Numbered from the stretch's first letter, positions 861 to 24,800 are shown. The stretch: 32,000 bases of DNA from Candidatus Omnitrophota bacterium (GCA_963662715.1 OY759724.1:1230001-1262000); one strand, 5' to 3'. The notes: generated by a model from the letters alone, not told the origin. Numbers and translations: made by a program.

Positions 861-3800
861 AATGTCGCGCGGGAAATACCCATCTTGGCCAGATGCTGCC
901 AGAGATAAGCATTTTCAAGTCCGAAGCGGACGAGCGCTGTTCTGTTGTAGGATCTTTCCATTTCCTCATTAAACAACGCCTCTGCCTGTACCTTCAGGCC
1001 AAGCGCTTCAGCCTCTTCAATACTTAACGTTCTGAAGAATGTTTCTATCTGATATTCAACCCGCTCTTCCGCTTTCTCTCCCGCAGGCCCTTCAATTCTG
1101 GTAATCACGTCATCGAGCTTCACGGACCGTTTCACTTCACCCGTTCTCTCATCAAACTCAAGACCCACGATAATTTCCACCAGGTCTCTTTCAAGATTAT
1201 CCGGGTTCTGGGCCGGGACAGCTTCTTCCCTGACCGTAATGATCTTTCTCTTCACCGGATCATGCGGGATTCGGTATGTCGTGGTTCGGACATTGTCAAC
1301 CGTTGTCTCTGTCGAAACCTCAAAGATCAGATCCGACAAATCATCCACTTTACTGAACCGGGACATATCAAGGTTCAGCAAGGCTTCTCTGACCAAATCA
1401 TGCTGGATAAGAGCGGCGAAATCGATCTGCTGAATATCTCCGGCCCTGACACGGCCCCTATTTTCCGTATCCCAGACTTTGACCCAGCCTGAACCGTTCG
1501 CGCGGATCTCAACCTCGCTGGTCTCATGCTTGCCTGTCGGAGAATATTCTTTTCTTTCCTGGATTCTGAAGATGCTCTTTTCACCCGCCCGCTCACCAAG
1601 CTGTTCGTTTTTGTCAGAATCCTTAACCAAGGCGAAGAGCTGTTCCTGATTTTCAAAGTTCTCCGGAATCTGGATAGACCCGATCTGTTCTACCATAATC
1701 TTGCCCTTAACGATTTCTCTGCGTGTGACAAGAGCGCTTCCGCCGAGTTTCTCCTGGTCTCTCAGGTTAATGAATGTCTGGACGCGGTTCTCCCTGGTTC
1801 CGGTATAGCTGTAAACTCCCGTGACATTTTCGACTTCAACCTCTGTGCCGTCTGCCTGACGGACCGTTACGGTGAGACCTGTCTCTTTCTTGTAATCCGT
1901 GGAATAAAGCTCTTCGCCCGTTTCCGGATCAAAATAACGGATCTCTTCGCGCTCAGGATCTGTGCTCTGCAGCAGTTCGCCCTGGGCATTGTACACGTCA
2001 TATCTTTCCGTATCAGCCGCGAAATCTCTGACCGTGACATATCTGTTGCCTTCGGCGTCAACACGAGTTGTCAGAGATTCTCCGATGACCGGGCCTGTTA
2101 TGTCGACTGTTCCGTCAGCATTGACCTCATAGTCATCCAGCCAGTAAACCTTGCCGACGTTTTCGGAATCAAAGATTTCAATCTTCGACTCTTCCTGATC
2201 CACGGCCAGGTACAAGCGGGCGCCCCTGTTTCCTGGGAGGGTAACGTCAAGCACGCCGAACTTGTTCACGTATCTTGCGTTCCAGCGGGCCTTTTCATAA
2301 TTGGCGACATCCATCAATTCATCCATGGTCATGGACATGGCCGTGTTATCCTGATCCGTGAAGAAGAATTCCGTCTGCTGTCTCTCTGCCACCATGTCTT
2401 CGCCGGCAAAGCTGTAGTCCACAATACCTCTCGTCATGATGTCAGCATCTTTCATCGATTCGATTCTTTCGCTCAAACCGCTCAACCGCTCTTCGGAAGC
2501 CCCTCTCTGTGTTTCTGCGACACGCTTACGTTCTTCTAAGACTTTCTTCTGCAATTCAAGCGCCGTATCTCCTCGATCCTCTTCCGGCGAATTATACGGA
2601 TCAACAAAGAGGCTGATAATCCATTCAATGAAGTCCATGAAGCGGTCCAGCAGGGACGGATTCCTGTCTACGGCGGCTGCTTCTGCGGCAAGCCGTTCTT
2701 CCGTTTCTTTCGCGATCCGCTCTTCGATCTCGGCGATTTCGGCTTCCAGTTCGCGGATTCTTTCAGTATATTCCTCAATTTCTTTCTGGGCTTCTTCCGC
2801 CTGTGCCGTCAAGACCGGCAACATATCAATGACCACCGTTGACTTCAGAGCCCTGAGCTCTTCACTGATATATCCGTCTTCCTGTGAATAGTACTGGATG
2901 GTTTCTGATTCCAGACGGCCTTCATACTGACCGGTCAGATATTGCGGTGAATAATACGGATAACCTGCGCCTTCATACTCAAGGTGCTGATCTGTCGTTC
3001 TGTATCTGTCAGAGTGATCCAGCGTCATCAGTCTTTCATATCTCTCATTGCTGATGATCTGGTAATCGAACAAGGTGCCCTGCCGCAGGATTCTCACCCA
3101 GTTGCCGCTCAACCGGAACTGTTTGACTTCGTCTTTATAATCCTGGCTCAGTTCGATGACAATGCGTCGGTTGCCGGCGATATCGACAAACGTGTCGGCC
3201 TCGCGGGTATCCGGCGTTGCCAGACGTGACAGCATGCGCGGTCCGCCGAACCTGGACAAGGACCACTGCAAAGTCCACTTAGACCCGTATTTATCCATGA
3301 ACGATGTCAACCGCTCCTTGATTTCCCCGGCCGATAAGTCAACGGCTTTGTCTTCGCCGGCCTCACGGAGGAGTTCGCTCAAGAAGCTTATGGTCTCGGC
3401 ATTGAAGGACACCGTCTCGATATAGGAGGCGATGTTCTCGCGGTCAACCGCAAAGATATCTTTCAGCATCTCGACCTGGTCTTTTGCCGCGAAGAGCGTT
3501 CCGTGACCGTTGCCCATCGGAATACCGAATTTATCTGAAGAAATTTCTTCGAACAGATCTTTTCCGGAAACATCTTCGCTGCTCCTTGCCGCCCCGAACT
3601 CGATGATAGCGCCGTCATATTCTCCGCCGACAACCACAAGTTTGCGCAATTCTTTACCGTCTTCGTCATAACGTCCTAACGGAACGAAATCTATGGTTCC
3701 GTTAGCCAGGTTGGAATCCGTTAACTCAAGCAGCGTTGCCAACGTTAAGCTGAACGAACCTGTTCCTTTTAACCGTAATGCGCCAATGTTGCCTTCGATG

Positions 3801-6800
3801 ACGGCCCCGTCATAAATTCCGCCTCTCACGACCGTTCTGGTTACGCTTTCTCCGTTAACCGTAACGCTCTCGGTCTCAAGATAGCCGTTGCTCTTATCCC
3901 CATCCGCCAGGATTTCCAGGATGTCCTTCGTCAATCTCACCGGCTCGGCATTCTCCAGCATCAACATATGAGAACTGCTTAACAATTCGAGCTCTCTCCT
4001 CATCGTCATTAAGTTGTCGTCCACAAACACGGCCTGGTTGTATCCTTCCGGCATCTCATTTCTCGTGTCTTCGCTGAGATCTTCGAAGTCTTGCGGCAAT
4101 ATGACGCGGGCCTTGCCCTCTTTCAGGTCAACCTTATACTCTACTGTCTCGCCGGCTCCGTTGACGTAGGTCGCCTTCATGTAGAAGGTCACCTGCTCTG
4201 TCTCTTCATTGATCGTACGGAAAATACCCACAGCATTAAACTGTTCTCTATAGTCTTCATAAGTGTCTCTGATGGACAAGCCGTAAGAGAGATCTGCTTC
4301 TGGGATGGCAAACAGCGGCGTACCGTCCACTAATTTTGCAACGCCGCCGAGGGTTTCCGCCGTAAAGGCCTCGATACCGCGGTCGACCAGATCAGCGCTC
4401 GGGATCACCACATCGCCTTGCGGAGTAATGGAAAGGAGGATATTGCTGTACACCGACTTCCGGCTCTTGATCAATATCCCTTCGATTTCTTCGAATTGAT
4501 CCTCTTCCAGACCCGGGAACCATGCCTTGAATTCCGCATCCAGCTCTTCGAATTCCGGAGCCACCCGCATGGCTTCCGATACATAGCCTTTCTCGATGAG
4601 TCTCGGAATAATCGTTGCCGCATCAAGCCCGGCTCTTTCAAACGGCTGGGCTGTCAGGATGCCGCGGCCGGAGCTCAAGGTCATCTCACCCGTGCCGTTG
4701 AGGTAGCTGCCGAAGATCTCTTCATCATCCTCGTTGAATCCGGTGGCCACGCCCAGCAACCGTTTATTTTCTTTATCCTGATCTTCAATATCCTTGCCTT
4801 TGATGAGCCGTCTTAACTGCTCCCAGGCGACAGAAACAAAATCATATTTAAGGTTGGCAGACGGCTCACCGGTTGTGGAATATCGCGCTTCATATTCAAG
4901 TTCTTTCGTAATGTTTCTCCGGACACTGGCGGTCGCGCCGTAATCGCCGTACTGGTTCACGAAGGCTCCAAGGCTGATGCCCTTCTTGCTATACTGCACG
5001 CCATATGTTTCAAGATCATTTTCCCTCTGGTAGTAACCGGAGAACGGCCCGACGTTGCTTCTCAGGCTTAACCGGTCAGAATCGCCGAAGGCCTGATCCA
5101 CGGACATGCTGAAAGTCTTCCAGCTGTATGTGGCCCCTAAGAGCGCGTAATACCGAGTGTAATCCTCCCAGAGGTCATGGACGAAACCGTCGCTTTCTTC
5201 CCTGACCCCGGAAACGCGTACGCTGAACTGATGTGCGCTATTCTCATTTGTCAAAGCCTGCTCGATTGTGATCTTCTGGTAATTGACCTTGTCATCAACG
5301 CCGAACGTGAGATCTTGTTCATCGATCGCCGTTTGCCCGGTCAGCGGATCAACGATATAAACATCTCCCACCTCGGCTCTGTATCCATCTATGTACCCGG
5401 CTTCGGCGCTGATGGTCGTCTTGTTTATCTTGACTTCGACATACCCTTCGACACCTTTGGTTTCCATCTCTTCGCCTTCAACATTGAATTTCCAGAACGG
5501 AGCGAGACCGGCATAGACTTCCGCGTCGCCGACTTCCGTACGGTAAGCCAGGACGTCCACCAGGAGGATAGCGGATTCTTCCTGATCCTCACCGTCATCC
5601 GGGTCGGCGGCGTTCTGCAGGTAACGGTAAGATTCTGTATAACCGACGGAGAGGTTATGGCTAAACGTCGTATTGTCTGCGCCGGAGAGGTCAACGCTCG
5701 CCCGGACGTAGCGGTTTTCAGGAGCGTTTTCGTTCTGAGCCTGGAAGGTTCCGGCTTCCAAATCTACGCCCGGAACGGCATTATGAACCGAGAACTGCTG
5801 GAAGGTGACGGTGGCTTCACCGTTGAGGTTGACCACGTCAATCGTGCCGGACTGAATCACCGGCTGGCCGTTGACCATGGCCACGCGGCCGTAAAGTTTC
5901 TTGTTCACGAACACTTCATCGCCAATCTTGATCACCGGCGGCGGTGAACGCGTCATGCGGGCGATGAAGTTGTTGATGGCTCTAACATGTATTTCTTTGT
6001 CTTCAACGCTCTCTGAACTCTCTTCAACAGCTTTGATTAGGTACTGTCTCAAGGCGACCAATTGATCGTTATAGTCATTCGCCGCATCGGCAACGGCATT
6101 AACCTGCCTCTTCGCGTCGAGTTTAAGCTGTTCATAATCCTCCTCAGCCTCCGCCAGCTTGTTGGCTTCTCTGAGATTGGTGATCTCAGCCTGAATCATC
6201 GGCAGCAAGCCGGCCGTCATCATATCAAAGGCAGGATCGCGTCCTTCTCCTGTTCTCTCATCAACAGCTTTTAACGAAGCCAGGGCGTTCTCGGCTTCTC
6301 TGTCCAGGACATCGCCGATTTCCTCACCGGCGCCTTCCTTGAAGTACTGGCCATTAGCGATTAACGTGTTGATCTCTTCTACGATCCTCAACCGCTCCGT
6401 CAAGATAGCCTGGTTCGCTTCAAAGAAGGCGATCTTGCGCTCAATAATCTGATCCACCGTCTCACTGGACCGACCTTCCTGCAGGGCCAGATCTCTTTCG
6501 ACCTGTCTGTGAACACCGTAGTCCGGATTGTCATGGAAAGCTCTTTCCTGGGACAAGGTCGGGATAAACTCGTTCACGAATTGTGTGGTGGCTTCGCTGA
6601 GAGGCCCGGGTCCGCGGTCGCCGTTGTAAGCCACGACTGTTGACAAGTATGTCTCTGCTTCCGCCGTACGGCTGTATCGGCCCATGGTCTCTTTGGCCCG
6701 CGGCTGGTCATCATCAATATGCCAGTATGTCTTAACTTCCTCAATCGTCTTGACCTTTTCAGGATCTTGTCCTGCCTTGCGCTTAATCGGGATAATGAAG

Positions 6801-9800
6801 AATTCATCGGTGAAATCAACGACATTCAGTTCGATCGACCTCCGGAGCAGGGATTGTTTTTCTCTGAGGAGGCCAGCTTCTGTTTCCGCTAATTCACGGC
6901 GGCGGTCTAACATGCTGGTGACTGTTTCGGCGGCAATATTTCCTCCCTGATCGCTGATCTCATAAAGTCTCTGATAGTAGCGCAGTTCTTGCAGGTTCCG
7001 GTTGGCTAAGACCAGCTCTCTGCGGGTGGCGGACAACCAATCATTGATCAGCGCATTATAATCGCTTTGGCCTCTCGTATCCCGCTCTAAGCTTTCCAGC
7101 TGCTCGATACCTTCTTCCAGGCGCTGGATATACCCCATTCTCTCAATGTCATCCTTGCCATGAGCTCTATCATATAAGCCGTCATCGCCGGTAATGCCTT
7201 TGGATCTGTCTCCGTAATACTGGATGCCTTCCCAAATTTCTTCGCGTTTCGGCAAGAGGTTCTCGAAATCTCTTTCATCCCACAAGGCCTCTATGGCAAC
7301 CAGACGGCCGGGTTTCGGATTGCCTTCGTCGTCATATTCGATTTCTCCCGTGATAGGATCTAACTCATACGGCCCTTCAATGGACTGAATCTGATAGCCC
7401 GCTCGTGTAATGGACAGGTTAACAGCCGCTTTCCAGCCTTCTGTGTCACCTTCCTCCGGCAGGTTGCCTTCGGAATCTCTTTCTCCCAACCCTAAGCCCT
7501 GGGCGGCCAAGACCATGTTCTCGGAAACGCCGTTCTGCAAGTTGCGCAAAGTCGTCAAAGCATCGGCGATATCAGCCAAATCTGTTCTTAAATCTTCAGC
7601 CGTTTCTACGCCGAACAGCGAGCCTGTGCCTCGCTCACGGTATTCGTTGATCACATCCGTCAAGACCTTAACCACATCACCGTCTTCTTCCTCGATCTTT
7701 TCTCTTAATTCGGCAAAGTATTTCTCACCGCTGACGTCGTTAGGATCTTCGGAAAGGGCGATCATTCTCAAATATTTCTCCAAGGCTGTCCCTTCAATCA
7801 GCTTGAAGTCTTGTTCCGCTCCGCTCTGCAGGAAGCTCTTCCAGGCGGCTAACCGCTGCTGGACAACGTCATCGTCTCTTTCAACCATTTGTTTCTCAAG
7901 CTCCTGCAGTTCATTGTCCAGCGTCCCCAACATGGCATTCAGTTCATCGACCAGGCCTTCCTGGCTGTCTCTGGCCTCGGTGAGCTTCGCTATGATCTCA
8001 TTCAGAGCCGTATCCTCGCTATCGAGTTTTAACAGGGTCGCCAGTCTCTGGATGTTCTGAATATCGGCCTGAGAATACTTCACCTGGTCAAAAGCGGATA
8101 ACTCTGTATTCACTTCCGGTTCGGAAACCGGCAGTTCAACGCCGTCTTCGACATCCATGATCGGAGTGCGGTCTGTATACTGATATGTTCCATCGGCATT
8201 CTGGACAGCGACCAGGTTGCCTCTGTCAGCCAGTTCATTGTAAACCTTGGTGAATCCTGGACCGTATTCGAATACGCTGACGTTTCCTGTACGGCGGTTG
8301 ATCAGCAGGGTGTTCGGCAGCACGTCGTCCGCCTGGTACTCGATAATCTTTCTGGCCACTTCTGTCTGGCCGTCCTGCTTGGTCCACTGCATCAGCAGAG
8401 ACATATATTCATCCTGCTCGCGGCTGATATAGTCGTTGACGATTTCCTGTTCGTTGAAGATATAGCGTGAACCTTCTCTCGGGTTGGATACCGAATGAAC
8501 CATGCCCACCGGAACGCCTCTTTCCGGTCTCAAGAAGAGGACGCCGACCTCACCCTTGATGGTTCTCTTATCCTGTAATGTCCAGTATTGTGTGCTGACT
8601 CTGTCTTCCTCTTCCCTCAAGGAGACGACCTCGTTGTCAAGCTGGGCACCGCCGATAACCAGTTTTCTGTACGGCGGCAGGCGGGTCTTCTTCACAACCT
8701 CGTCCGCCGCATACTTAATGGCGCCCTTCTCTAAGTTCGTTAATATCGACTCGTTGGTGACTGTGCTTTCCGGAATAGCGATCAACATTTCCGAGAACTC
8801 TTTATCACGCACAATCAGAATGGTCTGATTCTCTGAGGCCTCAACGATCTCGGAAGAGTTTTCAATTCTTAACGGATCGGTTACGCGGACGTTAACGATA
8901 CGGGCCGGTTCCGTCATTTGGTCCGTCGGATCAAAGACCACCATATCGATGCGTTCGCCGATTTCGGCCGGGATACGACCTAAGATGGCATCGACTTCCC
9001 TGCGGCTTAAGTCGGCGGCATTGTACTGGATTCTTTCACCCCGGTTGTTCAGATATCCGCTTTCTTCGATCTCGTTCAAAATGGTGTTGTAGATGATCTT
9101 GGTCTGTCCGTTCACATCGGCTGTGAGCGTTCCTTCTTCAATATCCAGGAGTTGATCCTGCGTCAGCTGGTCTGTCCTCAGATAATTTCCTTCGGTGTCA
9201 TAAACAGCCATCAAGGCCGCAATATCATCTGCCGGATTCGTATGCATCCAGAGGTTCAGTTCAGCCGGCTCGGCTCCGAAGATCACGATCGGATGGACAT
9301 AGCGGACTTCTTTTTCTCCATTATCTCCGCCTTCACCGCCGTCCGAACCGCCGATTTCGTTGATGATAAAGTGCGGATCAATTGCGACTTCAACCGGGTT
9401 GCGGCCTAAGTAGTAGGTCATGCCGTCACGCTCAAACAGTTTGTTCGGCAGCACGGCCGGCAGGTTCTCTTCGAAATAATGCTCGGCAATGATTTCCAGT
9501 GTCACCGGGTTGATGCTGACAGCCACCGGACGGGTCTCTTTGTTCTTGCCGAACATCGCCTCAAAGAGTCTCTGGTTAAAGACCTCGGACGGCAAGACAT
9601 ACATTTCGCCTTGCTCTCTGTACGGGAAGCGGTTGACCGGATCTTCCATGAAGGCTTTCGTGACCGGGGTCTTCGCTTCCTTCAGAGCCGCGGATGTCTC
9701 TTGCAGGGTTTCTTCCAGCTCTGCCCTTTCAGTCTCATCTGTTGTCTGGCTCAACTGGGCCTGTATCTGGACAATCTCTTCCTGCAATTCTTCAACGGCT

Positions 9801-12800
9801 TCGATGTTATACCAGTAGCGGAGCGTGATGAATACCGTTTCTTTTCTGTCTTCCGGATCCTCGGCTCTCAAATTGTATCGATACCCGAAATCAAACCAGT
9901 CTGCCGGATAAACATTGTCCTCTATTTCAATTGTTTCTCCTTCTTTTCCTCTCTGAACAGCATAGATAATGCTCGGGTCTGTGTTCTTTTTAGCCTCTAA
10001 GGTATAATCGACTTCCCGTCGGCCGATGAACGGTACGGCCGGATATTTATGGCCTTCGTAAACTGAATCCTTATCAGGATCACCAAAGATGCTCCATACG
10101 CGGCCGAAAACTTCCTGGACAAAGTCGCCGATCAAGTGCGACAACGGGATGTCAGCTTTGCGGCCCGTGCGGATATCAGAGAACTTGGCTTCCGTGCCTT
10201 CATCGTTAAGCGGAATAATTTCCGGACTGGCCTTAAGCTCTGTTGTCAGATCCACGAACGGCCGCAAGACGTCCAGGGCTCCGCGGGTCTTATCCAGTCT
10301 CCAGAAAGGATGTTCTCTCTGAACCGCGATACCGCCCACGCCTTCCATGTTGAGGTAAACCTTCTCCATGCCTTCGTTATAAATTTCTGATGCGGCCTGA
10401 GCCCAAGCGACATAAGTGAAGGCTTGGGTAGCGATGGAAGCATCTGCAATGCTTTCCGCCCCGGTGGCCATATTGATAATCTGGGCATATTTATTGAGCG
10501 GTGTATCGAGCCCGATCATGAAATCAAGCGTGCCGTCTTCCCAAAGCTGGATGGAATGCCCGAAAAGCTTGTTGCCCGGATTCCAGTTGATACCGATTCC
10601 GGCGAAGAGGCTGGCCACCTTCTGCTGATCCTGCTGGGTCAATCCATTGGCGAAGTTTTGCGGCGTGGAGGTGAGAACCTGGTTATAAACGTCAAAGACC
10701 TGATATAAGGCTTCCTGCCGTCTGCGTTCATCGTTACGGGCATCGCCTTCTGTCTTCATCTGGATCTGTCTCAGCAGTTGTCTGGCCTTAAGGATATCTT
10801 CTTCTAATTCCTGAATACCTTCGCGGACATCTTCTAATCTGTCTTCCGGTGTCACTTCTTCCGGAGCGTATCTGCCGGCTTCAACGTTAAAGAGTCTTCT
10901 CTGTTCACGATCTATCTGCTGGCGGATCTTCTCTGTCTGGACTTTCGTCGTTTCGCCCCGTTCGCTTAAGACCTGAAGTTCATCTTCTTCCAGGTACGGA
11001 TTCATGAGCGACAAGGTCTCATCATTAATCTTCAGCTTAAAGACATATTCGGACTGGGCTGTTGTCTCGGTTCTAAACGTGCCCGCCAAGCCCAGGATCG
11101 TGCCGGCCTTGATCTCCTGGCCGACCAAGTTAACGTTGGTGCCTGTGAGATGACCGAAGATCTGCTGGACTTTGACTGTCTTGCCTGACCCTTCTTCCAC
11201 TGTTTCGGATTCAATGATAATTTCTTCACCGAACGGACCAGGCTCAACGCTAATCACCGTACCATCCATATAGCTCCGGACTGTGCTCTGTTCCGGCACA
11301 ATATGCTTCACAAACAGGCCTTGTGCTCTGATCTGATATTCAGTATTCACAATCAAGCCTTCCGTCGCCGCTGTTGTTTCCGGAGTTTCTGACGGCACAA
11401 CGCGGCCGGCAAGTTCTGAGGCTACAAATCTCGGAGTATCAATATTATCGAATTCATCAACCAAGGCGTAAATTGGGTTCTTGCTGGCAAACCACAGCAT
11501 CGTTTGCATACGGTCGACCTCGGCAACTTCAACCGCCTGTCTGAACAATCGGTAGACAATCTGGTTCAGCTCTTCTCTCGTCTTGAACTTGTCTTCCTGC
11601 GAAACAATGAAGACCATACCTTGTTTCGGTCCGACCGGCTCATCGGTAAAGGATTCCTCGTCCAAGATAGCGTTAATGTCTGTTATATCTGATTCAGTTA
11701 AGTTTGTTAACGGCTCAACGCCATCTGTTGTGATCTTCATCAAGCCGGCGCCGGTTCGGTAAATCAGGTACGGATCCTGCTGATCCGGAGTGGCGACGCC
11801 GGCGCCTTCTGTTCTGAACTGTGCGTGATCATCGATTCTCAGGATCGACATGACCGGCAAGGCTTCCTTCAGCTCAAAGTTCTGCTTAGCAATCTCCATT
11901 CTCTCTCTCAAGCTCAAGTTCGCAATAACGTCATGCTGTTCGACTTTGGCATCCGCCTCCGTTTCGCTCATAAACCAGATGCCTTCTTCTCTATAAGATT
12001 CGTCAATCGCTTTGAATTCACCGTCAAGTCTGCCTAACCGGGTCGGGACCGTTACCTCTTGTCCGCTGGTCAACCGTGTTCTTAACCGGCCAAGATTATC
12101 CACATCAAGATTTTCGAAATAGTTCATAATTGTTCTGACATACTTCGGTGTTTCCTGGTTCTTGGAGACATCACCCTTAATAACTCTCGGGTAATACCCG
12201 GCAGAATACCCCGGTCCGGCGTTGTATCCGGCCAAGGTGTACTGCAGAAGCTCTCTTAACGTAAGGTCTTTGTTCTCATACTTGCTGTTCAACATGGTAT
12301 CCATAACCTTGGCCACATAAGCGACGCCAACGGTGATATTCTTCTCGCGGTCGAACGCTTCACCATAGGACCATCTGCTGTCGATAAGGCCTCGGCTGTA
12401 AAGCGTGTTAACCATGGAAGACCAGGTGCCCGGCATGATCTGCATAATGCCTGTTGCGCCGGCCCGGCTGACAGCTCTCGGTTTGAAGCGGCTTTCCTGA
12501 TACATCATGGAAATAATGAATTTCTCCAATTCGTCCTTTGTAAATAACGGCTGGCCGTTGTTGTCTTCAAATTCTTCGGCGACCTGTTTAAAGATCGGGT
12601 AGTTCTTCCAGGCATCTTCGAGGATATCATCGAGTTCACGGATATCATGGCTAACCGGTGTTCTGGTCCGGCGGGCTTTTAAGTCTTCCGCATCCGTCAT
12701 TTCTTCGACATCGGATACCGTCATCTGACTTATAGCTTCCACGGTCAACGCTGTTCCTGTGAGGTCTTCATCTGCTTTGGCTTTAAGATATCCGCGGTAG

Positions 12801-15800
12801 AATGCTTCTGTCGGATCAATGCGATATTTATCTCTTGTCATTAAGGAAATCACTTTCTGGCGATCGGAAGACGGCGCAATACAGATTTCCATATGGACAT
12901 GGGCGACCGTTGTTTCGGCATTACCTGTTTTACCCGAGAGGGCAAAGACTTCACCCGCTTCAACTTTATCTCCTTCTTCGACCTCGTAATCATTCAAGTG
13001 GAAGAAGATAAAGAAGACTTTATCGCCGCCCGCCACTGTTTCATCGGATTCGATGAAGACGGTCTTTCCTGCTTTCTCAGACGCAGGATTGGTATGGATA
13101 ACCCGTCCGGAAACCGGCGACTTCAATTCCACGTCTTCCGGCAGTAATATATCGATTCCGCCGTGACCATTGACGGACCCGATTCTATAAGTTCCGAATC
13201 TTCCGTCTCCCTTGGAATCCCGTCCGCGGAGGACCCCGGCAGCGATCATTTCATCTTCAATAGCCGCGTTGTTCTCGAGTCTCTCTGTTGTTTCCGGAAC
13301 GTCCCTGCCTTCCACTCCCGGTTCTTCGGCCACTTTTCTTCTCAGGTCTTCTGTAATCTCACCCTCAGCAATCTTATTGCTGATGTGGACTAACGATTGC
13401 GGTGTCAACTCAAAGTCATCCCGGTCGTCACCGCTGAGCTGGAATGCTTCCTGGAAGAAGGCGATATCCTGTTCATCTAAGTCATCCCATTTGGCCTTAT
13501 CTTCAACAACGGCATCAATAAGAGCTTTGGACAGATATTGTTCTAAGGATTCTCTGTTAGCTTCCACCAGCAACAATGCCAGTTGACGATCGCGTTTTTC
13601 TTTCATATCGGCCAGGAGCTGAAGCTGCAACTGTTCTGCGCTGAGATTGATCAATTCTTTTTCTGAAACATTTTCATCCTTCAGTTTTTCTCTCGTGGCT
13701 GTTATGGCTTCTTCCGCTTGGGCCACGGCATCTTCATCCGAAAGCTCTGCGTCAAAAGTCTTGGCTCTGGCCGCTAATTCGTATACGGCAATATCTTTTT
13801 CTCCACCCATAATGTTCTGATAGACCCAGTTGCTGGCGCGTATTCCAGCTGCATCTTCGACACTATCCAGACCATGCTGAGCCCAGTTAATCGCACCATA
13901 CTGACCTTCAAGAGCTTCGGCCAAATTGTAGATCGGTTTACCCACAACGCCTAAGATCGGGTGTTCAGCCAAGGCCTTGCTGCCGCCCATAACCGCGTCA
14001 ATTTCAATTCCGATCAAGGACATATGCCACAAGCTGCTTAAGAACTTGCCGCCTTCTAAGAGCCATTGAGCGAAATAGGATGTCTTGGCTTTTTCAGTTA
14101 AATCTTTATTAGCTTCCTGCATCAGGTTAACGAAGAAATCAAAATCAAATTTTCTCGTATTATTCATCAGGAAGACCGGGAGATATCCGAGATAGAAGAC
14201 CGTCGCCAGCGGCACACCTAACCAGAAGCCGGTTAAGGCCTTGCCTAATGCTAAGGCCCGGTTCATGATGCTTCGTCCCTGCGGCGCGGCAACCTTGGTT
14301 TCGGCCTCTAACATTTTCTTCAGGGCCGGCCGGCCTTCAGCCGTTACAGTTCCGTCGGCGATCAATTCCTTGATAAGAATTTCTGTCTTCTCATTAGCTT
14401 TCTTGCCCTCTGCCGGATGCATCAAGCCGTACAAGTAGCGGGCAGATGTCGAGGCGATATTAACACCTTGTTTCTTCCTGGCCCGGATATACATAAGATG
14501 TTTGGCTGTATCAAGAACACTCATGAATCTCAAGCCAAGCACCGTAATCATTAATTTGACAAGTTCGGGCACGGATAACGGCAAGCCTAAAGCGTTGGAT
14601 GCGACAACATCCATACCGAATATCGAGATAACGAGAGCGTGGCCGATAACGCCGGAAATGAGAAGCATGGTGCCTCGGCTGACCGCAAAGCGTACGATAC
14701 CAAACGGAACCGGGAAGGCGGAGACCAGCCAAGCCAATAACTTCTGTCGACCATATGTCCAGGTCTTGCGGATACTGCCTATTTTTTCAGTCGCTAATTC
14801 TTCTCTGAGGATCTCGGTCTCTGCTTCAACACTCTTCCTCTTCTGCGCATCCATGGTTCCGTCTTTGTATTCCTTGACGAATTCAGCAAAATCAATAGAT
14901 TTCATGATGTATTCCCAGAAGAAGTTCCAGACCACTTTGACCAGGTAAGGTGCCAGGTATCCGAAGATGGCGCCTTTAGCCACGGAAATCCAGAAAGCTG
15001 TTGTTGCTACTGCTGTTAAAGTAAGCGGCATGAACAGGGCGCCGACAACCGCCCCTGCTGCCAGTGAAACGAGGGCAATCTTTGTCTTATTCTTGTCGAA
15101 GATCCTTAACATGCTGCCGATTAATGAGGACGGCTTCGGAGCATATGTCTGGGAATGTATGATTCTCAACGCCTGGCGTTCGAGCAAGCTGACGCCGCCC
15201 AGGACACCGTAAGTTAAGGAGGCATCTTTTCCAGCCTTAAGATTACTGACGTCCTTCACAAACAGGGCCAAACCGGCCATAATTAGCGATGATACGCCGA
15301 AAATGGCTATAAGCGACCCAGCCATCGTTGGAACGAGGGCAATACCGGCAGCGGCTATTCCAGCGTGAATTAATAATTTGAAGACATTGTAGACATCGCG
15401 CTTTTGCAGCGGTCTGGTGAACAAATCTCTTAAGTTACTCCAAATACCAGGTTTGACTGGACTGGAGACATTGCCGGTCTCATGACTTGAAATCTCTGTT
15501 TCTTCTCCCTTAACCGGACTGGAGACCGAGGTGTCCTCTACAGAAGCCCGTACGGGCGAACTGGCCACAGGAAGCTCGGCCGCCGTGATATTGGCTTGCG
15601 GGCTTAAGTATGTAATTCCGCGGTAAATACCTTGCGGATACCCTGTCGGTAACATCTGATCCGTGAATCTGATGACCATAGATCCACGTTTTACGGCCTG
15701 CTGCCCAGCTGTCGCTATACTGCCTGTTCCGATCTTGCTGATCATGTGTTCAGCAAAGAATCTAGTATTGTTTTCTTCTGCGTCGCCGCTTCCCTCTCCG

Positions 15801-18800
15801 CCGGCCGAAATTTCGAAGACGATCTTTGTTCTCATGCTTTCCAGCAGTCTGCCTAAGTCCACTATCGGATTCAGGAGAGCGCTAAGAAGTCTTTCTGTCT
15901 GTCTCTTATTGTCTTGATATGTCTTTGTTAAGAGATAATAGTAGAACCCTGTCTGCTCTTTATAGGTTTCTGAGATACGGCTTAATTGCTTAATAAACTC
16001 ATCTTGTTTCTCAAAGCCTCTATTGACACCGGAATCAAAGACGGCCTTCAAGCCATACAAGGCCGTTGTGCTTTCCTCTCCGGCATTTCTGTCGATGGAC
16101 GTGATCAGGTCAGCCAATTGTTCTCTGCTTGTGCTTCTGTACAACTTCGAAGCAAACATTCTTCTGAAGAGGTAATCTCTTGCTCCCCTTGCTGCTCTTC
16201 TGTAATTTTCAGCCGTGCTGAGCGCTGTCCAGGCCGCCGTCAGGTGCTCAACCGTCTTCCTGTAATCTCTGGCCATGAACTCTTTGACCTTGCCAGGTAC
16301 ACTTCTGAGCGCTGTCCAGGCCGCCGTCAGGTGCTCAACCGTCTTCCTGTAATCTCTGGCCATGAACTCTTTGACCTTGCCAGGTACACTTCTGAGCGCT
16401 GTCCAGGCCGCCGTCAGGTGCTCAACCGTCTTCCTGTAATCTCTGGCCATGAACTCTTTGACCTTGCCAGGTACGCTTCTGAGCGCTGTCCAGGCTGCCG
16501 TCAGGTGCTCAACCGTCTTCCTGTAATCTCTGGCCATGAACTCTTTGACCTTGCCAGGTACACTTCTGAGCGCTGTCCAGGCTGCCGTCAGGTGCTCAAC
16601 CGTCTTCCTGTAATCTCTGGCCATGAACTCTTTGACCTTGCCAGGTACACTTCTGAGCGCTGTCCAGGCTGCCGTCAGGTGCTCAACTGTCTTCTTGTAA
16701 TCTCTGGCCATGAACTCTTTGACCTTGCCAGGTACGCTTCTGAGCGCTGTCCAGGCTGCCGTCAGGTGCTCAACCGTCTTCCTGTAATCTCTGGCCATGA
16801 ACTCTTTGACCTTGCCAGGTACGCTTCTGAGCGCTGTCCAGGCCGCCGTCAGGTGCTCAACCGTCTTCCTGTAATCTCTGGCCATGAACTCTTTGACCTT
16901 GCCAGGTACGCTTCTGAGCGCTGTCCAGGCTGCCGTCAGGTGCTCAACCGTCTTCCTGTAATCTCTGGCCATGAACTCTTTGACCTTGCCAGGTACACTT
17001 CTGAGCGCTGTCCAGGCTGCCGTCAGGTGCTCAACCGTCTTCCTGTAATCTCTGGCCATGAACTCTTTGACCTTGCCAGGTACACTTCTGAGCGCTGTCC
17101 AGGTCGCCGTCAGGTGCTCAACCGTCTTCCTGTAATCTCTGGCCATGAACTCTTTGACCTTGCCAGGTACACTTCTGAGCGCTGTCCAGGCTGCCGTCAG
17201 GTGCTCAACCGTCTTCCTGTAATCTCTGGCCATGAACTCTTTGACCTTGCCAGGTACACTTCTGAGCGCTGTCCAGGCTGCCGTCAGGTGCTCAACCGTC
17301 TTCCTGTAATCTCTGGCCATGAACTCTTTGACCTTGCCAGGTACACTTCTGAGCGCTGTCCAGGCTGCCGTCAGGTGCTCAACCGTCTTCCTGTAATCTC
17401 TGGCCATGAACTCTTTGACCTTGCCAGGTACGCTTCTGAGCGCTGTCCAGGCCGCCGTCAGGTGCTCAACCGTCTTCCTGTAATCTCTGGCCATGAACTC
17501 TTTGACCTTGCCAGGTACGCTTCTGAGCGCTGTCCAGGCCGCCGTCAGGTGCTCAACCGTCTTCCTGTAATCTCTGGCCATGAACTCTTTGACCTTGCCA
17601 GGTACACTTCTGAGCGCTGTCCAGGCTGCCGTCAGGTGCTCAACCGTCTTCCTGTAATCTCTGGCCATGAACTCTTTGACCTTGCCAGGTACGCTTCTGA
17701 GCGCTGTCCAGGCTGCCGTCAGGTGCTCAACCGTCTTCCTGTAATCTCTGGCCATGAACTCTTTGACCTTGCCAAGTACGCTTCTGAGCGCTGTCCAGGC
17801 TGCCGTCAGGTGCTCAACCGTCTTCCTGTAATCTCTGGCCATGAACTCTTTGACCTTGCCAGGTACGTTTCTGAGCGCTGTCCAGGCCGCCGTCAGGTGC
17901 TCAACCGTCTTCCTGTAATCTCTGGCCATGAACTCTTTGACCTTGCCAGGTACGCTTCTGAGCGCTGTCCAGGCCGCCGTCAGGTGTTCAACCGTCTTCC
18001 TGTAATCTCTGGCCATGAACTCTTTGACCTTGCCAGCTTTAATGCTTACAGCCTCAACAGTGCTGTCAACCATCTCTTTCACGCCACCTCGTTTGATGAA
18101 GTTATAAACCCTTGCGCCCAACATCAAGCCAGGAATAATGAGAAGGACTGGCCAAACGGCACCAACCGTTGTCGCAACAACTGGTACGGTCTTTGCCACA
18201 ACCGGCAAGCCGACTGTCAGACCTTTACCTAATCCATAGGAAACAATGAGGTAGAGTATCGCAGATTTGATGGTTCCTGTTGCTGCAGCTCTGAACATAT
18301 TTCTATAGGTTACAGCACTAAAGACCGAACGGAAGAACCTCGCCGTACTCGCTCCGAATGTCTTTACGGCTTCGCCCATCTGTCTTGCTTTCTTTGCCGC
18401 TCTCTGATATCTCTTGTAGGACTTGGAAAGCAGGATATCTTCAATAACTTCTTTATCTTTACCCGCTAATAATTGGGCTAATTCATCGTTATTATCGAGT
18501 TTCAAGCGTCTCAATAATTTTTCTGTTTCACCGAGATTTCTTTCTATCGGTGAAGAGGAGGCAGAAGCTGTAACGGATTCGCGGCCAGAGGCGGAAAGAA
18601 CAACCTTCTCTCCCACCTCTGGTGTTTGAGATAATGCATATCTGCCTCCCTTAGTTGAGATTTCTGCGTGATCCTGTTCTGTAAATCGGAACTGTTCTAT
18701 TCTGGATCGCACTGGAGAGGATGCCTCGAACATGGTTGTACTCGGCTGCGCTGGTAAGCTCAACCCAAGTTGCTTTAAGGCCGTTACGGCGGTAAATCCG

Positions 18801-21800
18801 GCCTTTATGGTTGAAGATGAGGTATAAATGAGTTCTTCCTGTCTTCTCTCTGGCAGTGCCGAAGATACAGTCGCAACGCTGGATCTCAACGAGATGTTTG
18901 AATTCGATGTCTGGTAATTGATTGGTTTGCGTGTTGATAAGGACCATAATGTACCTCCTGTGGTTAATTGAATTGCTTGTGTATTTGTTCTATCAAATGA
19001 AGAACCCTGACCGGTAATATCTGCACGAATGGCAGCCATACCAGACAGGGTTCGTTTTGTATGGGATATAAGTGAAGCAACAGATCCTATATTTGCAGCT
19101 CTTGGTGCAACTTCATATCTGAGCTTCAATAAGGTAAGATTTGTCCTTATAGAGACATATGTGTCATATATGCCTTTAGTAATGACACAAATAGCTTTGG
19201 CGAGATTTTCTCGCTTAAAGACTTGAGTTAAGAGTTTTACTCTCTTGAGGGACTTTGATACAACTAACGATACGAGTGGCGTGCTAACTGGAATAGCAGC
19301 AGCCAATAGTTTCTCAACACCTAATGAACCTTCCCAAGCCATTCTAGACAGCCCAGAAATAGTTCTTGTAGTGTTTCTCTTTTCGCCTGTACCAGTTGCC
19401 TCGTTCTGATCCGCAGCTCTATCTGTTACAACCGCTACATCCTGAGTAAACTCTGCCTTGTCAGAACCTCTACCCGTTGTTACAGCAATAACCGCCTGAG
19501 CGATTCTCAGATCAAATTCATCCGCTAAAGCTTTATCCTCAGCAGCGCTTACCTTTATACCTACAGGCAACACTCTGAGAACTCTTCTTAACACATCTTC
19601 AGAACCACTTATCACCTCGATCGCTTTCGCAATCCAAGCTCTCAGCAATTCTGCGATACTGCTAAGCACACCTTCAGCAGATTCTTCGTACGCTTCTACA
19701 GTACTTACAGCCTGACCAGTCACCTGACCAAACCGTATACCTAAGGCTTTATTCTCAGTCACATCCATTACTGGCTGTACTCTGAGAATTCCACTGGAAA
19801 CAGCTTTTACTGATCCAGGCACAACTTCAGTTCCTGTTATCAGTACACCATCACCAGCAACCCTAGCTTCTGCTCGTACTGCATTCGCATAGCTAATCAC
19901 TTGACCGATTACTCGACCAAGCTTCACAAAGGCTTTTGCCTCAGCAAGACTTACTGTTTCTTCAACAGCTTGTTCACTGAGAACCTTATCAGATACAATA
20001 TTCGAACTGCTTACACCTTCGATTACTTGCGCAACCTTAGACTTCAGCAATCCTTCTACTATACCTTCACTTCTTACAGAGCGGTTTACTACAGTTACAA
20101 CGCGGTTAGCCTGAGCGATTCTCAGATCAAGTTCATCCGCTAAGGCTCTATCCTCAGCAGCGCTTACCTTTATACCTACAGGCAACACCCTGAGAACTCT
20201 TCTTAACACATCTTCAGAACCACTTATCACCTCGATCGCTTTCGCAATCCAGGCTCTCAGCAATTCTGCGATACTGCTAAGCACACCTTCAGCAGATTCT
20301 TCGTACGCTTCTACAGTACTTACAGCCTGACCAGTCACCTGACCAAACCGTATACCTAAGGCTTTATTCTCAGTCACATCCATTACTGGCTGTACTCTGA
20401 GAATTCCACTGGAAACAGCTTTTACTGATCCAGGCACAACTTCAGTTCCTGTTATCAGTACACCATCACCAGCAACCCTAGCTTCTGCTCGTACTGCATT
20501 CGCATAGCTAATCACTTGACCGATTACTCGACCAAGCTTCACAAAGGCTTTTGCCTCAGCAAGACTTACTGTTTCTTCAACAGCTTGTTCACTGAGAACC
20601 TTATCAGATACAATATTCGAACTGCTTACACCTTCGATTACTTGCGCAACCTTAGACTTCAGCAATCCTTCTACTATACCTTCACTTCTTACAGAGCGGT
20701 TTACTACAGTTACAACGCGGTTAGCCTGAGCGATTCTCAGATCAAGTTCATCCGCTAAAGCTTTATCCTCAGCAGCGCTTACCTTTATACCTACAGGCAA
20801 CACCCTGAGAACTCTTCTTAACACATCTTCAGAACCACTTATCACCTCGATCGCTTTCGCAATCCAGGCTCTCAGCAATTCTGCGATACTGCTAAGCACA
20901 CCTTCAGCAGATTCTTCGTACGCTTCTACAGTACTTACAGCCTGACCAATTTCACTACCTAAGACCGTATCCCTGACAGCTTCACTTATACCACTTGAAG
21001 CCACTTCAGGAACATCTTCTAATATAGTCAAGGCATTTACAGCTCTTTCAGTTGTTTTCACAACATCAGAACCTTCATAAACCTCAACCACACTAGCATC
21101 TTCGACAGTTACTGCACCTACTGTCTTAGCATACACGGCTTGAGCATCATCTCGTTCAAGCTTTTGTTCAAAGGCATTATCCTCAGCAGCACCTACTTCT
21201 ATATAAGCAGATACCTTGAGAACATGACCATACAGAATCTTTGCACCGCTTATTGCTTCAACATCGCGCAACTGCTTCACAGCAACTAACGATACCTGAT
21301 CTCTTCCAGCCATACCATTGATACTTCCAACATACGCAACATCAGCAGCCTTGCTTACAGCAGACATATAGTCTACATCAAAGGCTTTACCCTCAGCACA
21401 TAAGCCACTACTGGCCAACACACTCAGGATACGATTTGTGAATACGTTATTCAGCACATTCTCATTACTGAGGACGGCTACAACATATCCATCAAACCTT
21501 ACACCCCTGACAAAGCTTACTTCAGTAACAATGTCAGCATGATCAATTACTTGACCAAGTATACCAAAGGCATCTAACTCAGCCTCACCGGATACATCAT
21601 CAGCGAATACTCTGAGTTTTCCACTGTACAGAGAATCAGCACCGCTTATTGCTTCAGCCACACTTACAGCATCCACATTAAGCCATACACTGAATCCGCT
21701 AGTACTACCTTTAACAGAACGTGATACAACTCTTCCAACACCAACAACGGAAACAGTTTGATCGCTTACACGACCATACTCATTGCTGATTGCACTAGAC

Positions 21801-24800
21801 ACACCAAATACATCACTTGATTGTGTACTAGCCTTCTCATCATTAGACACAGCATTCGATTCGCTTCCAAGCGTTGATACACCTTCATCATCACTTGTAG
21901 TCGTATCTTCAACAACGCTAACGATAAGTACAGAGCGATTAGTCCATTTGCTGCCGTACGTTCTAAGGATCGTTACAACACGATTCGTATACTGCTTCAA
22001 CCAAGCACTAACTTTCATCAGGGCCGATCTAACAGCCACGAATATTCCTTCAGCTACCTTGAATGGCTCTTCAAGGTTGTAGCTGGCTGTAGGCACAGCT
22101 TCCGGTAATGTACTTCTTCTAGACCCGTTACCAGACTCAGATCTAGCAATTCCCTGAATCAATCCGGACAATAGAGCCATAACTGCCTTGGCTATGCCTC
22201 CGAAGAGTATAGACCAATCAATTGCAGCTATACCACTAATACCAGATGTTCTCAAAGAACCGGCATTGGCGTATGTTCCACCTACACCTCTCGTGTTAAC
22301 GCCTCCACGATTGGCGCTCACCCATCGAGTCTCTAACTCATCCTCGGCTTTTTGTGTTGCTGCCGAGAGAACTGTACTACTCGTCTCAACATTGACGATT
22401 GCACTGCTTACACCGTTCGCGTTATCGTCACCGCGACTGGCGTTTCTCACCCAATTAGTTTTTAACTCTGGTGTCACCGCTGTCGAAGCAGCCGTGATCA
22501 CACGAGCCGATTCAGCGATTGTACTGCTCACACCAGCAGCTACGCTAGTTCTGGTGGCGTGTTTCTCCCTTACTTCTGTCTTCGCCTCTGATGTGGCCGA
22601 TGCGACAACCACACGAGCCGATTCAGCGATTGTACTGCTCACACCAGCAGCTACGCTAGTTCTGGTGGCGTGTTTCTCCCTTACTTCTGTCTTCGCCTCT
22701 GATGTGGCCGATGCGACAACCACACGAGCCGATTCAGCGATTGTACTGCTCACACCAGCAGCTACGCTAGTTCTGGTGGCGTGTTTCTCCCTTACTTCTG
22801 TCTTCGCCTCTGATGTGGCCGATGCGACAACCACACGAGCCGATTCAGCGATTGTACTGCTCACACCAGCAGCTACGCTAGTTCTGGTGGCGTGTTTCTC
22901 CCTTACTTCTGTCTTCGCCTCTGATGTGGCCGATGCGACAACCACACGAGCCGATTCAGCGATTGTACTGCTCACACCAGCAGCTACGCTAGTTCTGGTG
23001 GCGTGTTTCTCCCTTACTTCTGTCTTCGCCTCTGATGTGGCCGATGCGACAACCACACGAGCCGATTCAGCGATTGTACTGCTCACACCAGCAGCTACGC
23101 TAGTTCTGGTGGCGTGTTTCTCCCTTACTTCTGTCTTCGCCTCTGATGTGGCCGATGCGACAACCACACGAGCCGATTCAGCGATTGTACTGCTCACACC
23201 AGCAGCTACGCTAGTTCTGGTGGCGTGTTTCTCCCTTACTTCTGTCTTCGCCTCTGATGTGGCCGATGCGACAACCACACGAGCCGATTCAGCGATTGTA
23301 CTGCTCACACCAGCAGCTACGCTAGTTCTGGTGGCGTGTTTCTCCCTTACTTCTGTCTTCGCCTCTGATGTGGCCGATGCGACAACCACACGAGCCGATT
23401 CAGCGATTGTACTGCTCACACCAGCAGTTACGCTAGTTCTGGTGGCGTGTTTCTCCCTTACTTCTGTCTTCGTCTCTGCTGTGGCTGATGCGACAACCAC
23501 ACGAGTCGATTCAACGATTGCACTGCTTACACCGTTCGCGTTATCGTCACCGCGATTGGCGTTTCTCACCCAATTAGTTTTTAACTCTGGTGTTACTGCT
23601 GTCGAAGCAGCCGTATTCACACCAACCTTTGCTATCGTTACAACATATTCAAGTCCTGTCCTCTCTTGAGCAGCTTTTCCTGCCTGAATGCCTGAGGAGG
23701 CATTGGCAGCGGCCCACGGCGTGGGACTAGAGCCAGAACTTCTAAAATTCTTTTTGGCTCCTTTGTCTATACTTAAATCTATGTGTTGCCGTTCTGCTTG
23801 CGGATCAACAATTGGTGCGCTGGCAACAGAAGCTTTATTAGCATTCATATTTCTGGCATAGGCGATAACCAAAGCTGTCTTGGCTTTTGCCGTTCCTGTA
23901 GCTCCGGCAGTTCCTCCGCCAGGAGCCGGCTCTTCAACAGGAGCAGGAGAACTAAACGGTGAACTTGTAATAGGAACACCTTTGGTTCCGCTATCCTTTC
24001 GGCCTTCTATAGGATTATGTTGATTGGACGGAAGAGACAACTTCCCAAGACTGAACGCTGCTATAGGCAATGCAGGGATAAATATTGGAGAAGACGGCAC
24101 AGCTTGCACAGGTAATTGCGGCGGTGCAACAGGCTCTGTAACAACAACTGGCGGTGCTAGCGGCTGTTCTTCCGGAGGCGCACGAGAAGCTTCCGTTAAT
24201 ACGGTTTCTTCCGGTTTAGAAAGGTCTTCCTGTTTAGCCACTTGCCCTGATACCTTATCCTGAATTGTTATCCCTGAAGCATCGGCAGGTTTCTCTGCTT
24301 GGGCCTTGTCCACTTTTGCCACTTCAATAACTTCTTCCTGGGCTCCTTCTTTAATTTCACTGCCGAACAAGAAGGCAAAGGCATCTTTAAGTTGTCCCCA
24401 CAAGCTCTCTGAGGACTCTTCGCCAACGAGAGCAACCAAATCTTCCTTAGTTTTAATTTTACGCAACTGATTAAGCGATTTTTCTAATATTGGATAGCCG
24501 TCTTCTGAAATTGTACGCTGTCCTTCCTGCTGTGCGGCATTGATAACAGCGTCCATCTCTTTGGCAAGCAACTGTCTTTCTGCCTGATCCTGAATTGACT
24601 GAGACATGACGGCCTTTATAACATCAAATGCTTTTCTGTTATCGACTGACAACTTCTCAATTTGCTGAATAACTGGTGAAGCCTGCGCAAGGCGCGGAAC
24701 CTCTGTAACCGTACCTGGTTGGTCTTTGGCTGTGGTAGAAGCTTTTGCAATTTCAACATATTTGGTTTGACTCTTTAACTTCTGACCATACGGAGTTCTT

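Follow-up and report, generated by a model that had tools for sequence, protein, structure and literature searches.

The DNA analyzed here is a 32,000-nucleotide (nt) stretch of the genome of a Candidatus Omnitrophota bacterium (GCA_963662715.1 OY759724.1:1230001-1262000; hereafter, the window is this whole stretch), and it is filled by part of one giant gene. In six-frame translation, a single minus-strand reading frame runs from nt 31999 to nt 2 (10,666 codons, 0 stops); this open reading frame (ORF; 2..31999) runs off the window at both ends and carries all of the features described below, so their coordinates are all on the minus strand. The ORFs on the plus strand are shadow ORFs of the giant frame. 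Residues are numbered such that residue k corresponds to nt 32000-3k to 32002-3k. The encoded protein has three Cys in 10,666 amino acids (aa) and contains several near-perfect tandem repeats; when all 10,666 aa were scanned against Pfam (hmmscan), Peptidase_M23 and SLT were the only families above gathering score. A preliminary description, made from the sequence alone, had located a back-to-back M23 endopeptidase and SLT lytic transglycosylase at nt 12150-13200; these coordinates bracket both domains, with the folded SLT lobe running on to nt ~12080. The two domains, the membrane module that precedes them, and the very long chain that follows them are the subject of this report.

The M23 (LytM-type) metallopeptidase domain occupies aa 6262-6380 (12860..13216; Pfam envelope aa 6278-6373, nt 12881-13168), as delimited by Pfam, phmmer, AlphaFold2 (AF2), and Foldseek. 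It matches Peptidase_M23 (PF01551) with 52.5-68.9 bits (cut-off 28.7; best E 4e-19; hmmscan). Three motifs are each found once in the protein, that is, HGGID (aa 6279-6283, nt 13151-13165), FFHLND (aa 6332-6337, which contains the central His), and HVH (aa 6367-6369); the Zn/catalytic residues H6279, D6283, H6334, H6367, and H6369 are intact and align with those of LytU, LytM, and four relatives. When PDB sequences were searched with phmmer, the matches were LytU (E 3e-11), LytM, and lysostaphin, with HGGID placed on HYGID/HYGVD and HVH on HLH/HVH. In an AF2 model of aa 6250-7010, the M23 domain has a predicted confidence (pLDDT) of 80-94 and the LytM beta-sheet fold; using this model, Foldseek returns lysostaphin, LytU, and LytM first (E ~1e-7, target TM-score 0.64-0.71). 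On its profile score and modeled fold, the domain is an ordinary member of PF01551, and cleavage of peptide cross-links is its predicted activity.

The SLT domain (family-1 lytic transglycosylase fold), delimited by the same four methods, occupies aa 6455-6640 (12080..12637; Pfam envelope aa 6492-6597, nt 12209-12526); the gap between the M23 and SLT Pfam envelopes is 118 aa (about 100 aa in the preliminary description). The match to SLT (PF01464) has 58.9-62.6 bits (E ~1e-16; cut-off 21.3; hmmscan). Its motifs, again each present once, are YQESRF (aa 6500-6505, with the catalytic Glu at 6502), GATGIMQIMPGTW (aa 6514-6526), and AGYNAGPG (aa 6590-6597); the family signature is present as E6502-S6503, GATGIMQ (G-x-M-Q as GIMQ), and AGYNAGP (A-Y-N-x-G as GYNAG), and the E-S motif is kept in all eight of the aligned relatives that cover the site. 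The phmmer search of PDB sequences identified an MltC homologue (1e-8) and also Slt70 itself; the window QES aligns with the MltC IES, with E6502 on the catalytic Glu. In the AF2 model the domain (pLDDT 75-94) has the lysozyme-like alpha fold, and the Foldseek matches are MltC, MltE, and Slt70 (E 4e-6 to 3e-5). The domain, which carries a family-specific C-terminal extension (ETPKYVRTIMNYFEN), is by the same measures an ordinary member of PF01464.

Thus, the paired-domain observation is confirmed: both Pfam families are significant, and the catalytic residues, including the HGGID, HVH, ES, and AGYNAGPG motifs that had been picked out from the sequence, stay aligned in proper alignments and in the structure model. 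By homology and model, M23 and SLT are real peptidoglycan hydrolase domains that look catalytically competent; the window protein and independent relatives (25-37% identity) have all kept these catalytic residues, an argument for catalysis being under selection. As candidate identities for these domains, we rejected the named equivalogs MepM, ShyA, MltC, Slt70, DipM, and flagellar BB0259, for which the NCBIfam scores are 20-37 bits vs cut-offs of 233-740. C-terminal to the SLT domain, the relatives have in common a short conserved beta-hairpin motif (PYLIYRTGAGLMKITTDGVEP; aa 6743-6763, 11711..11773; alignment A4 columns ~690-720) that is modeled as strands.

About 300 aa past the SLT domain is a second LytM (M23-like) domain (aa 6901-6992; 11024..11299; located by Pfam, alignment A6, and AF2) that the preliminary description had missed. 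Its Pfam M23 score is under the cut-off (24.4 bits, E 3e-5, vs 28.7), and its AF2 pLDDT is 67-89. In alignment A6 this domain retains the central His but has Arg in place of the Asp of HxxxD and EYV in place of HxH; the Asp-to-Arg replacement is found in three of the four aligned degenerate copies (the window, the L003 protein, and P0007; the relatives are described below), with Ile in the fourth (P0009). The alignment and the model identify this domain as a degenerate LytM, that is, a LytM fold that has lost its Zn ligands. It is kept in L003p, P0007, P0009, and L086g1. The conserved adjacency of SLT and degenerate LytM makes it possible that the latter is a cis regulator of the former. A LytM fold without Zn ligands beside a lytic transglycosylase is also the arrangement of DipM, EnvC, and NlpD, and the DipM and EnvC LytM structures are among the Foldseek matches of the aa 6250-7010 model; DipM uses its degenerate LytM to bind and activate soluble lytic transglycosylases (PMC10336132). 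The window differs from these systems in that its degenerate LytM is fused in cis to the putative partner and has a Pfam score under the gathering threshold.

The preliminary description had placed the hydrolase pair just C-terminal to a multi-helix membrane anchor; this is borne out by hydropathy. Rather than an unspecific group of helices, the anchor is a particular ~580-aa module that is conserved in relatives. The membrane module (aa 5530-6110, ~8 hydrophobic helices; 13670..15412; hydropathy, alignment, and AF2) has its cluster of hydrophobic helices at aa 5539-5945 and closes with a conserved amphipathic domain (WHMSLIGIEIDAV ... AEALEGQYGAINW); from the end of the last strongly hydrophobic helix (aa 5927-5945) to HGGID there are 333 aa. 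In an exhaustive HMMER search, the best relatives of the window protein were other very long proteins (1,700-7,800 aa) that match a block of ~550-580 aa corresponding to window aa 5540-6110. Alignment A5 of this block (16 sequences) contains invariant G, F, F, P, R, E, and E positions, and an invariant Glu is inside a hydrophobic helix (IGxEIxxV). The AF2 model of the module is all-helical (pLDDT 77.6, pTM 0.75); the module has no matches in Pfam, NCBIfam, or PDB sequences, and its modeled fold has no neighbor in PDB or BFVD (best E 0.84 among PDB folds and 0.74 among the viral folds of BFVD; TM-scores of at most 0.15). Thirteen of the module carriers with a named source are Candidatus Omnitrophota/Omnitrophica metagenome-assembled genomes (MAGs); the remaining named carriers are P0005 ('Pacearchaeota'), P0014 ('bacterium'), and P0015 ('hydrothermal vent metagenome, phage tail tape measure protein').

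The module is joined to the M23 domain by an acidic linker (aa 6111-6261, pI 4.3; 13217..13669; AF2 pLDDT <50 at its end). The hydrolases begin ~330 aa past the last transmembrane (TM) helix, that is, they are proximal to the anchor and not at a distal tip, and more than 4,000 residues are distal to them. The net charge of the chain changes sign at the same boundary: per 250 aa, it is +8 to +27 across aa 4251-6000 (with the exception of +1 at aa 5251-5500) and -15 to -32 in most windows of this size past aa 6000, so that the switch is located at aa ~5950-6000 (nt ~14000-14150), at the last TM helix. Likewise, the pI is 9.1-10.4 for the segments before and within the membrane module and 4.3-5.3 for all segments after the last helix. 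The 3,674 residues C-terminal to the degenerate LytM are acidic too; of these, the TM-free region of aa 6993-9728 (pI 4.5; 2816..11023) is collinear with the L003 and L086g1 proteins and, in part, with separate genes on contig L085.

The relatives define a cassette in which the order is a basic N-domain, repeats (in some members), the ~580-aa membrane module, an acidic linker, a variable hydrolase slot (occupied here by M23), SLT, the degenerate LytM, and an acidic TM-free chain of >3,600 aa. They were found by the exhaustive HMMER search; a word-indexed protein search did not retrieve the giant relatives (a 1,000-aa query and profile A5 returned none, and profile A4 returned generic SLT/M23 proteins only). 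The closest, L086g1 (5,342 aa, JGI contig), clusters at 90% with an NCBI Omnitrophota protein and is collinear with window aa 4186-9728 through the N-domain (55% identity), membrane module, SLT, degenerate LytM, and long C-terminal region, without the 29-aa repeat array of the window protein (below) and without an active M23. Its apparent true start is 95 nt from the contig end, just 3' of a TATAAT, and corresponds to window aa ~4150 (L086 nt 1-16124); the ~4,150 window residues upstream of this position are thus extra N-terminal modules. On the same contig, a second ORF of at least 1,774 aa overlaps the end of L086g1 by 32 nt.

The best match among GTDB species genomes is L003, a 92.7-kb contig in a MAG labeled Planctomycetales (the same PVC superphylum), of which the fetched 20.5 kb is again one uninterrupted ORF. 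Its protein is collinear with window aa 6421-9056 (29.5% identity over 2,818 columns) and has an SLT followed by a degenerate M23; an active M23 was not detected (Pfam). The L003 protein also has a weak Glyco_hydro_2_C match (TIM barrel; aa ~6354-6452; 23.9 bits vs a cut-off of 21) near its C-terminal part and a weak PG_binding_1 match just ahead of the SLT; neither domain was detected in the window.

An active M23 followed by SLT recurs in P0003 and P0013, with an M15 added in P0013; P0015 has M23 and a GH24 lysozyme, and P0007 has GH24, SLT, and the degenerate LytM. The NCBI name of P0108 is that of a LysM peptidoglycan-binding-domain protein. In Pfam scans the wall-directed M15, M23, SLT, and GH24 domains of the relatives are found at the same position after the module. 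From these comparisons, SLT and degenerate LytM form the conserved core that follows the membrane module; the slot between the module and the SLT is variable, and its occupation by an active M23 is optional. P0013, 'complete' at 2,280 aa, has before it an ORF of 3,279 aa whose end is a run of X (L084 nt 78-9917 and 10001-16843); a run of X is a scaffold gap, so the start of P0013 is probably an assembly artifact and its gene encodes at least 5,600 aa.

On L085, the contig (38.6% GC) that encodes P0007, genes of 226, 144, 672, and 260 aa follow with small overlaps or gaps (nt 10456-14938). The 672-aa and 260-aa genes match window aa 8245-8886, and homologs of the four genes are present as fused stretches in the window protein, P0003, P0009, and L003p; thus, part of the giant ORF has an operon as its counterpart elsewhere. 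These downstream proteins have no Pfam or PHROG matches.

N-terminal to the membrane module, the basic cassette N-domain (aa 4186-4450, pI 10.1; 18650..19444) marks the start of the standalone 5,342-aa relative, with which it shares 54.9% identity (L086g1 aa 39-303; phmmer 1e-68); it also matches P0007 and P0005. It is followed by a TM helix (aa 4604-4622) and by ~21 tandem copies of a basic 29-aa Trp repeat (WTALRSVPGKVKEFMARDYRKTVEHLTAA; aa 4648-5260; 16220..18058; repeat analysis), for which Tandem Repeats Finder reports an 87-bp unit in 20.9 copies at 98% identity (nt 16218-18036); the copy number may be unreliable in a short-read assembly. Farther upstream, a 111-bp tandem repeat (nt 22499-23533, aa ~2839-3170; 9.3 copies, 99% identity) encodes a 37-aa Ser/Thr/Ala-rich unit, a block of ~209 aa is duplicated in aa 3602-4183 (copies 79% identical), and aa 680-1300 contain more, diverged repeats.

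The tetrapeptide SSP[IVL] is present in 13 copies at aa 195-5512 (nt 15464-31417), where ~0.5 would be expected (maximum of 4 in 2,000 shuffles). All are N-terminal to the membrane module; the last three, all SSPV (aa 5480, 5493, and 5512; 15455..15562), are directly before it. The motif is also found at domain junctions of the Omnitrophota relatives, with 20 copies in P0020; it looks like punctuation between modules, judging from this distribution, and is possibly a processing site. Past aa 5512 there are no copies in the subsequent 5,150 residues, which makes the module, hydrolases, and C-terminal part look like a single unit.

The window protein belongs to a known class, the giant ORFs described for Omnitrophota, a membership that the preliminary description had not recognized, as it had also missed the specific conserved module and the dispensability of the active M23. 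In Seymour et al. 2023 (PMC10066038), West-Roberts et al. 2023 (bioRxiv 10.1101/2023.11.21.568195), and Nielsen & Lui 2026 (bioRxiv 10.64898/2026.06.07.730766), such giant ORFs and proteins are described, and SLT domains and a proposed role in cell-wall degradation have been noted for this class. The class is characterized by ORFs >20 kb, many TM helices, and few annotated domains; the window protein has an ORF of at least 31,998 nt and no fewer than 10 hydrophobic helices, and its named relatives are from Omnitrophota MAGs. It differs from described members in that none of the Archaeovorin set (glycosyl transferases, methyltransferases, NUDIX), SecA_DEAD, C39, dockerin, or TSP3 was detected by Pfam in the 10,666 aa within the window, beyond which both protein ends lie. 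A term search did not find 'M23' in the main texts, as retrieved, of the three papers, and the membrane module, the degenerate LytM, the cassette with its slot, and the operon-vs-fusion relation are not in their retrieved passages.

The preliminary description had proposed a membrane-tethered module that breaches a cell wall, either that of the producer or that of a target. The recurrence in the relatives of a membrane module followed by peptidoglycan hydrolases supports such a module, with the enzymatic activity as predicted from the domains. For its substrate, the best reading, which we put forward tentatively and by analogy with PrgK, VirB1, or FlgJ, is that it makes a hole in the producer's own sacculus. 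According to this mechanism, the membrane module would be located in the producer's inner membrane, and everything past the last helix would be periplasmic or outside the cell; the tethered M23 and SLT would cut peptide cross-links and glycan strands, respectively, so as to open a local hole in the producer's own wall, with the degenerate LytM as a putative cis regulator of the SLT, and the very large acidic C-terminal part would then pass through and be assembled across the wall.

The domain identities, the intact catalytic motifs, the folds, the conserved order, and the charge flip on which this mechanism draws are direct observations. The flip from basic to acidic at the last TM helix suggests an extracytoplasmic C-terminal part, as the positive-inside rule expects, and the wall-directed domains at the same post-module position in relatives are consistent with that side being periplasmic. 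Omnitrophota genomes are described as encoding complete canonical peptidoglycan synthesis (bioRxiv 10.64898/2026.06.07.730766); thus, the producer has a sacculus to cross.

One of the two closest functional precedents, with DipM, is PrgK of the Enterococcus pCF10 type IV secretion system (T4SS), in which extracellular LytM and SLT hydrolase domains are in one chain and one LytM is degenerate and regulatory. The anchor of PrgK is a single N-terminal TM helix. PrgK is described with extracellular LytM, SLT, and CHAP domains, of which the degenerate LytM down-regulates the SLT, and it presumably makes an opening in the wall of its producer through which an envelope-spanning machine can be built (PMC11323569). 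The two proteins differ in that PrgK is of ordinary size, is encoded by a Gram-positive plasmid, and has the order LytM-SLT-CHAP with the LytM degenerate, whereas the window protein has an active-looking M23, then SLT, then a degenerate LytM, a 580-aa multi-helix anchor, and >3,600 aa that follow in the same chain. Thus, by analogy, the window protein would work like a PrgK-type T4SS hydrolase but is not a member of that family: CHAP was not found in the window protein (Pfam), and the domain order differs. The SLT of PrgK proved to be a muramidase (PMC11323569), so lytic transglycosylase chemistry cannot be assumed for the window SLT.

Several points weigh against the opening of the producer's own wall. 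The topology is deduced from hydropathy and charge, and weak helices at aa 5803-5821 and aa 5986-6004 make the TM parity ambiguous. The closest relatives, L086g1 and L003p, are without an active M23, so the M23 is not essential for export of the C-terminal part. The shuffling of hydrolase types in the slot resembles that of arms-race enzymes aimed at foreign walls. The window takes in neither protein end and no flanking genes, and, as PrgK illustrates, what LytM and SLT domains do in experiments need not be what was predicted for them (PMC11323569).

The main rival, which is possible but which we consider unlikely, is a weapon directed at prey: the M23, the SLT, and the extracellular rest of the protein would break down the peptidoglycan of the bacterium, host or prey, to which the nanobacterium is attached. 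Omnitrophota giant proteins have been proposed in general to play this role, and peptides from a giant ORF are reported to be up 3-fold in attached V. archaeovorus cells (PMC10066038). The modular and variable slot (M15+M23+SLT, M23+GH24, or GH24+SLT) is as in phage lysins, and lytic enzymes typically pair an endopeptidase with a glycan cutter; however, the conserved core is SLT plus degenerate LytM and not the lytic M23, which is dispensable. The location of the enzymes beside the membrane anchor, with more than 4,000 residues distal to them, also argues against attack on a foreign wall, as does the lack past the module of any punctuation or cleavage motif that could release them. Methanosaeta is not known to have murein, and we count this on the same side. 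The prey of the studied V. archaeovorus is a methanogenic archaeon (bioRxiv 10.64898/2026.06.07.730766).

A second alternative is a heritage from phage tails or tailocins, in which coiled repeats, TM helices, M23, and SLT would form a tape-measure-like injection module that on contact is extruded into the envelope of a target cell, where its helices would enter the membrane and its enzymes would digest the wall. We consider this improbable. The 29-aa Trp repeat has tblastn matches in 74 phage records (17-20% identity), and tape-measure protein is the annotation of nearly all of the 12 matches listed; Bacillus phage B13 has an 11-aa Trp repeat immediately after TM helices. However, the repeat is missing from the closest relative, and the similarity of tape-measure proteins to the window is confined to this periodic repeat and the hydrolase domains. 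The SLT and M23 domains match SPbeta YomI and other tape-measure proteins, which likewise are long, repeat-rich, helical proteins with TM helices and an embedded M23 and/or SLT; T5 Pb2 is a tape-measure protein with an embedded lysin. Lytic transglycosylase lysins are reported inside tape-measure proteins, including enterococcal ones (PMC10194240). In the window protein, however, PHROG matches cover the hydrolase domains only (phrog_4070 covers the M23 stretch only). One relative is annotated 'phage tail tape measure protein'; the named carriers of the module are otherwise mainly Omnitrophota MAGs, and the module is not in viral structure predictions (BFVD). The short, translationally coupled genes downstream of P0007 on L085 would fit a phage tail locus, but they have neither PHROG nor Pfam matches. 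The window has no DNA or close protein matches in 50,697 phage records and is absent from IMG/VR; megablast against phages and plasmids likewise gave no close DNA matches, and an exact 43-mer of the window did not occur in the viral, genome, or metagenome contigs searched. The window protein is also ~5-10 times larger than tape-measure proteins; with each tape-measure residue accounting for ~1.5 Å of tail, >10,666 aa would correspond to a tail length of ~1.6 µm. Taken together, the negative PHROG and BFVD results, with the lack of PHROG and Pfam matches among the L085 neighbors, down-weight a giant tape-measure protein.

The third alternative, the least probable of those we weighed and very doubtful, is that the domains are fused housekeeping autolysins of growth or division, or that they bind peptidoglycan without cleaving it and staple the giant protein to the wall. 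The domain-level-only similarity that NCBIfam shows to MepM, ShyA, DipM, Slt70, and MltC would suit autolysins, but all of the NCBIfam scores are far under the equivalog cut-offs given above. The degenerate LytM is a non-catalytic use of the fold in the same protein, and the predicted LytM and CHAP domains of PrgK showed no hydrolytic activity (PMC11323569); against mere binding, all M23 and SLT catalytic residues are kept in the window and in the independent relatives. An origin from a conjugative plasmid or polyvalent protein was rejected, with plasmid tblastn returning generic SLT proteins only (27-37% identity) and no methylase, helicase, or ArdC-type Pfam domains present.

Returning to the opening of the producer's own wall, a broader proposal, which is speculative and which we consider doubtful, is that aa 4186 onward (~5,500 aa collinear with relatives) is a complete envelope-spanning machine built as one polypeptide, and that a giant ORF of this kind is a fused operon that in effect encodes a polyprotein. 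In such a machine, the Omnitrophota-specific module with a new fold may serve the C-terminal part of the same giant protein as a dedicated anchor or translocon; M23, SLT, and the degenerate LytM may be a built-in, self-regulated wall-opening unit; the distal parts may be what separate, translationally coupled genes encode in L085; and the upstream SSP[IVL] motifs may be processing or punctuation sites that part the machine from the N-terminal modules.

Omnitrophota giant proteins are among the largest predicted proteins known, and according to published surveys their functions are poorly understood. In the window protein, two textbook enzyme domains lie within ~400 aa, a segment short enough for cloning and for assays on sacculi. 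The segment is part of a cassette that is conserved and collinear in relatives, and it follows a membrane module whose named sources are almost all Omnitrophota. The cassette raises hypotheses that can be tested: how a giant protein may cross its producer's own wall, on which side of the membrane each of its parts may be located, and whether giant ORFs may be fused operons whose products are later processed.

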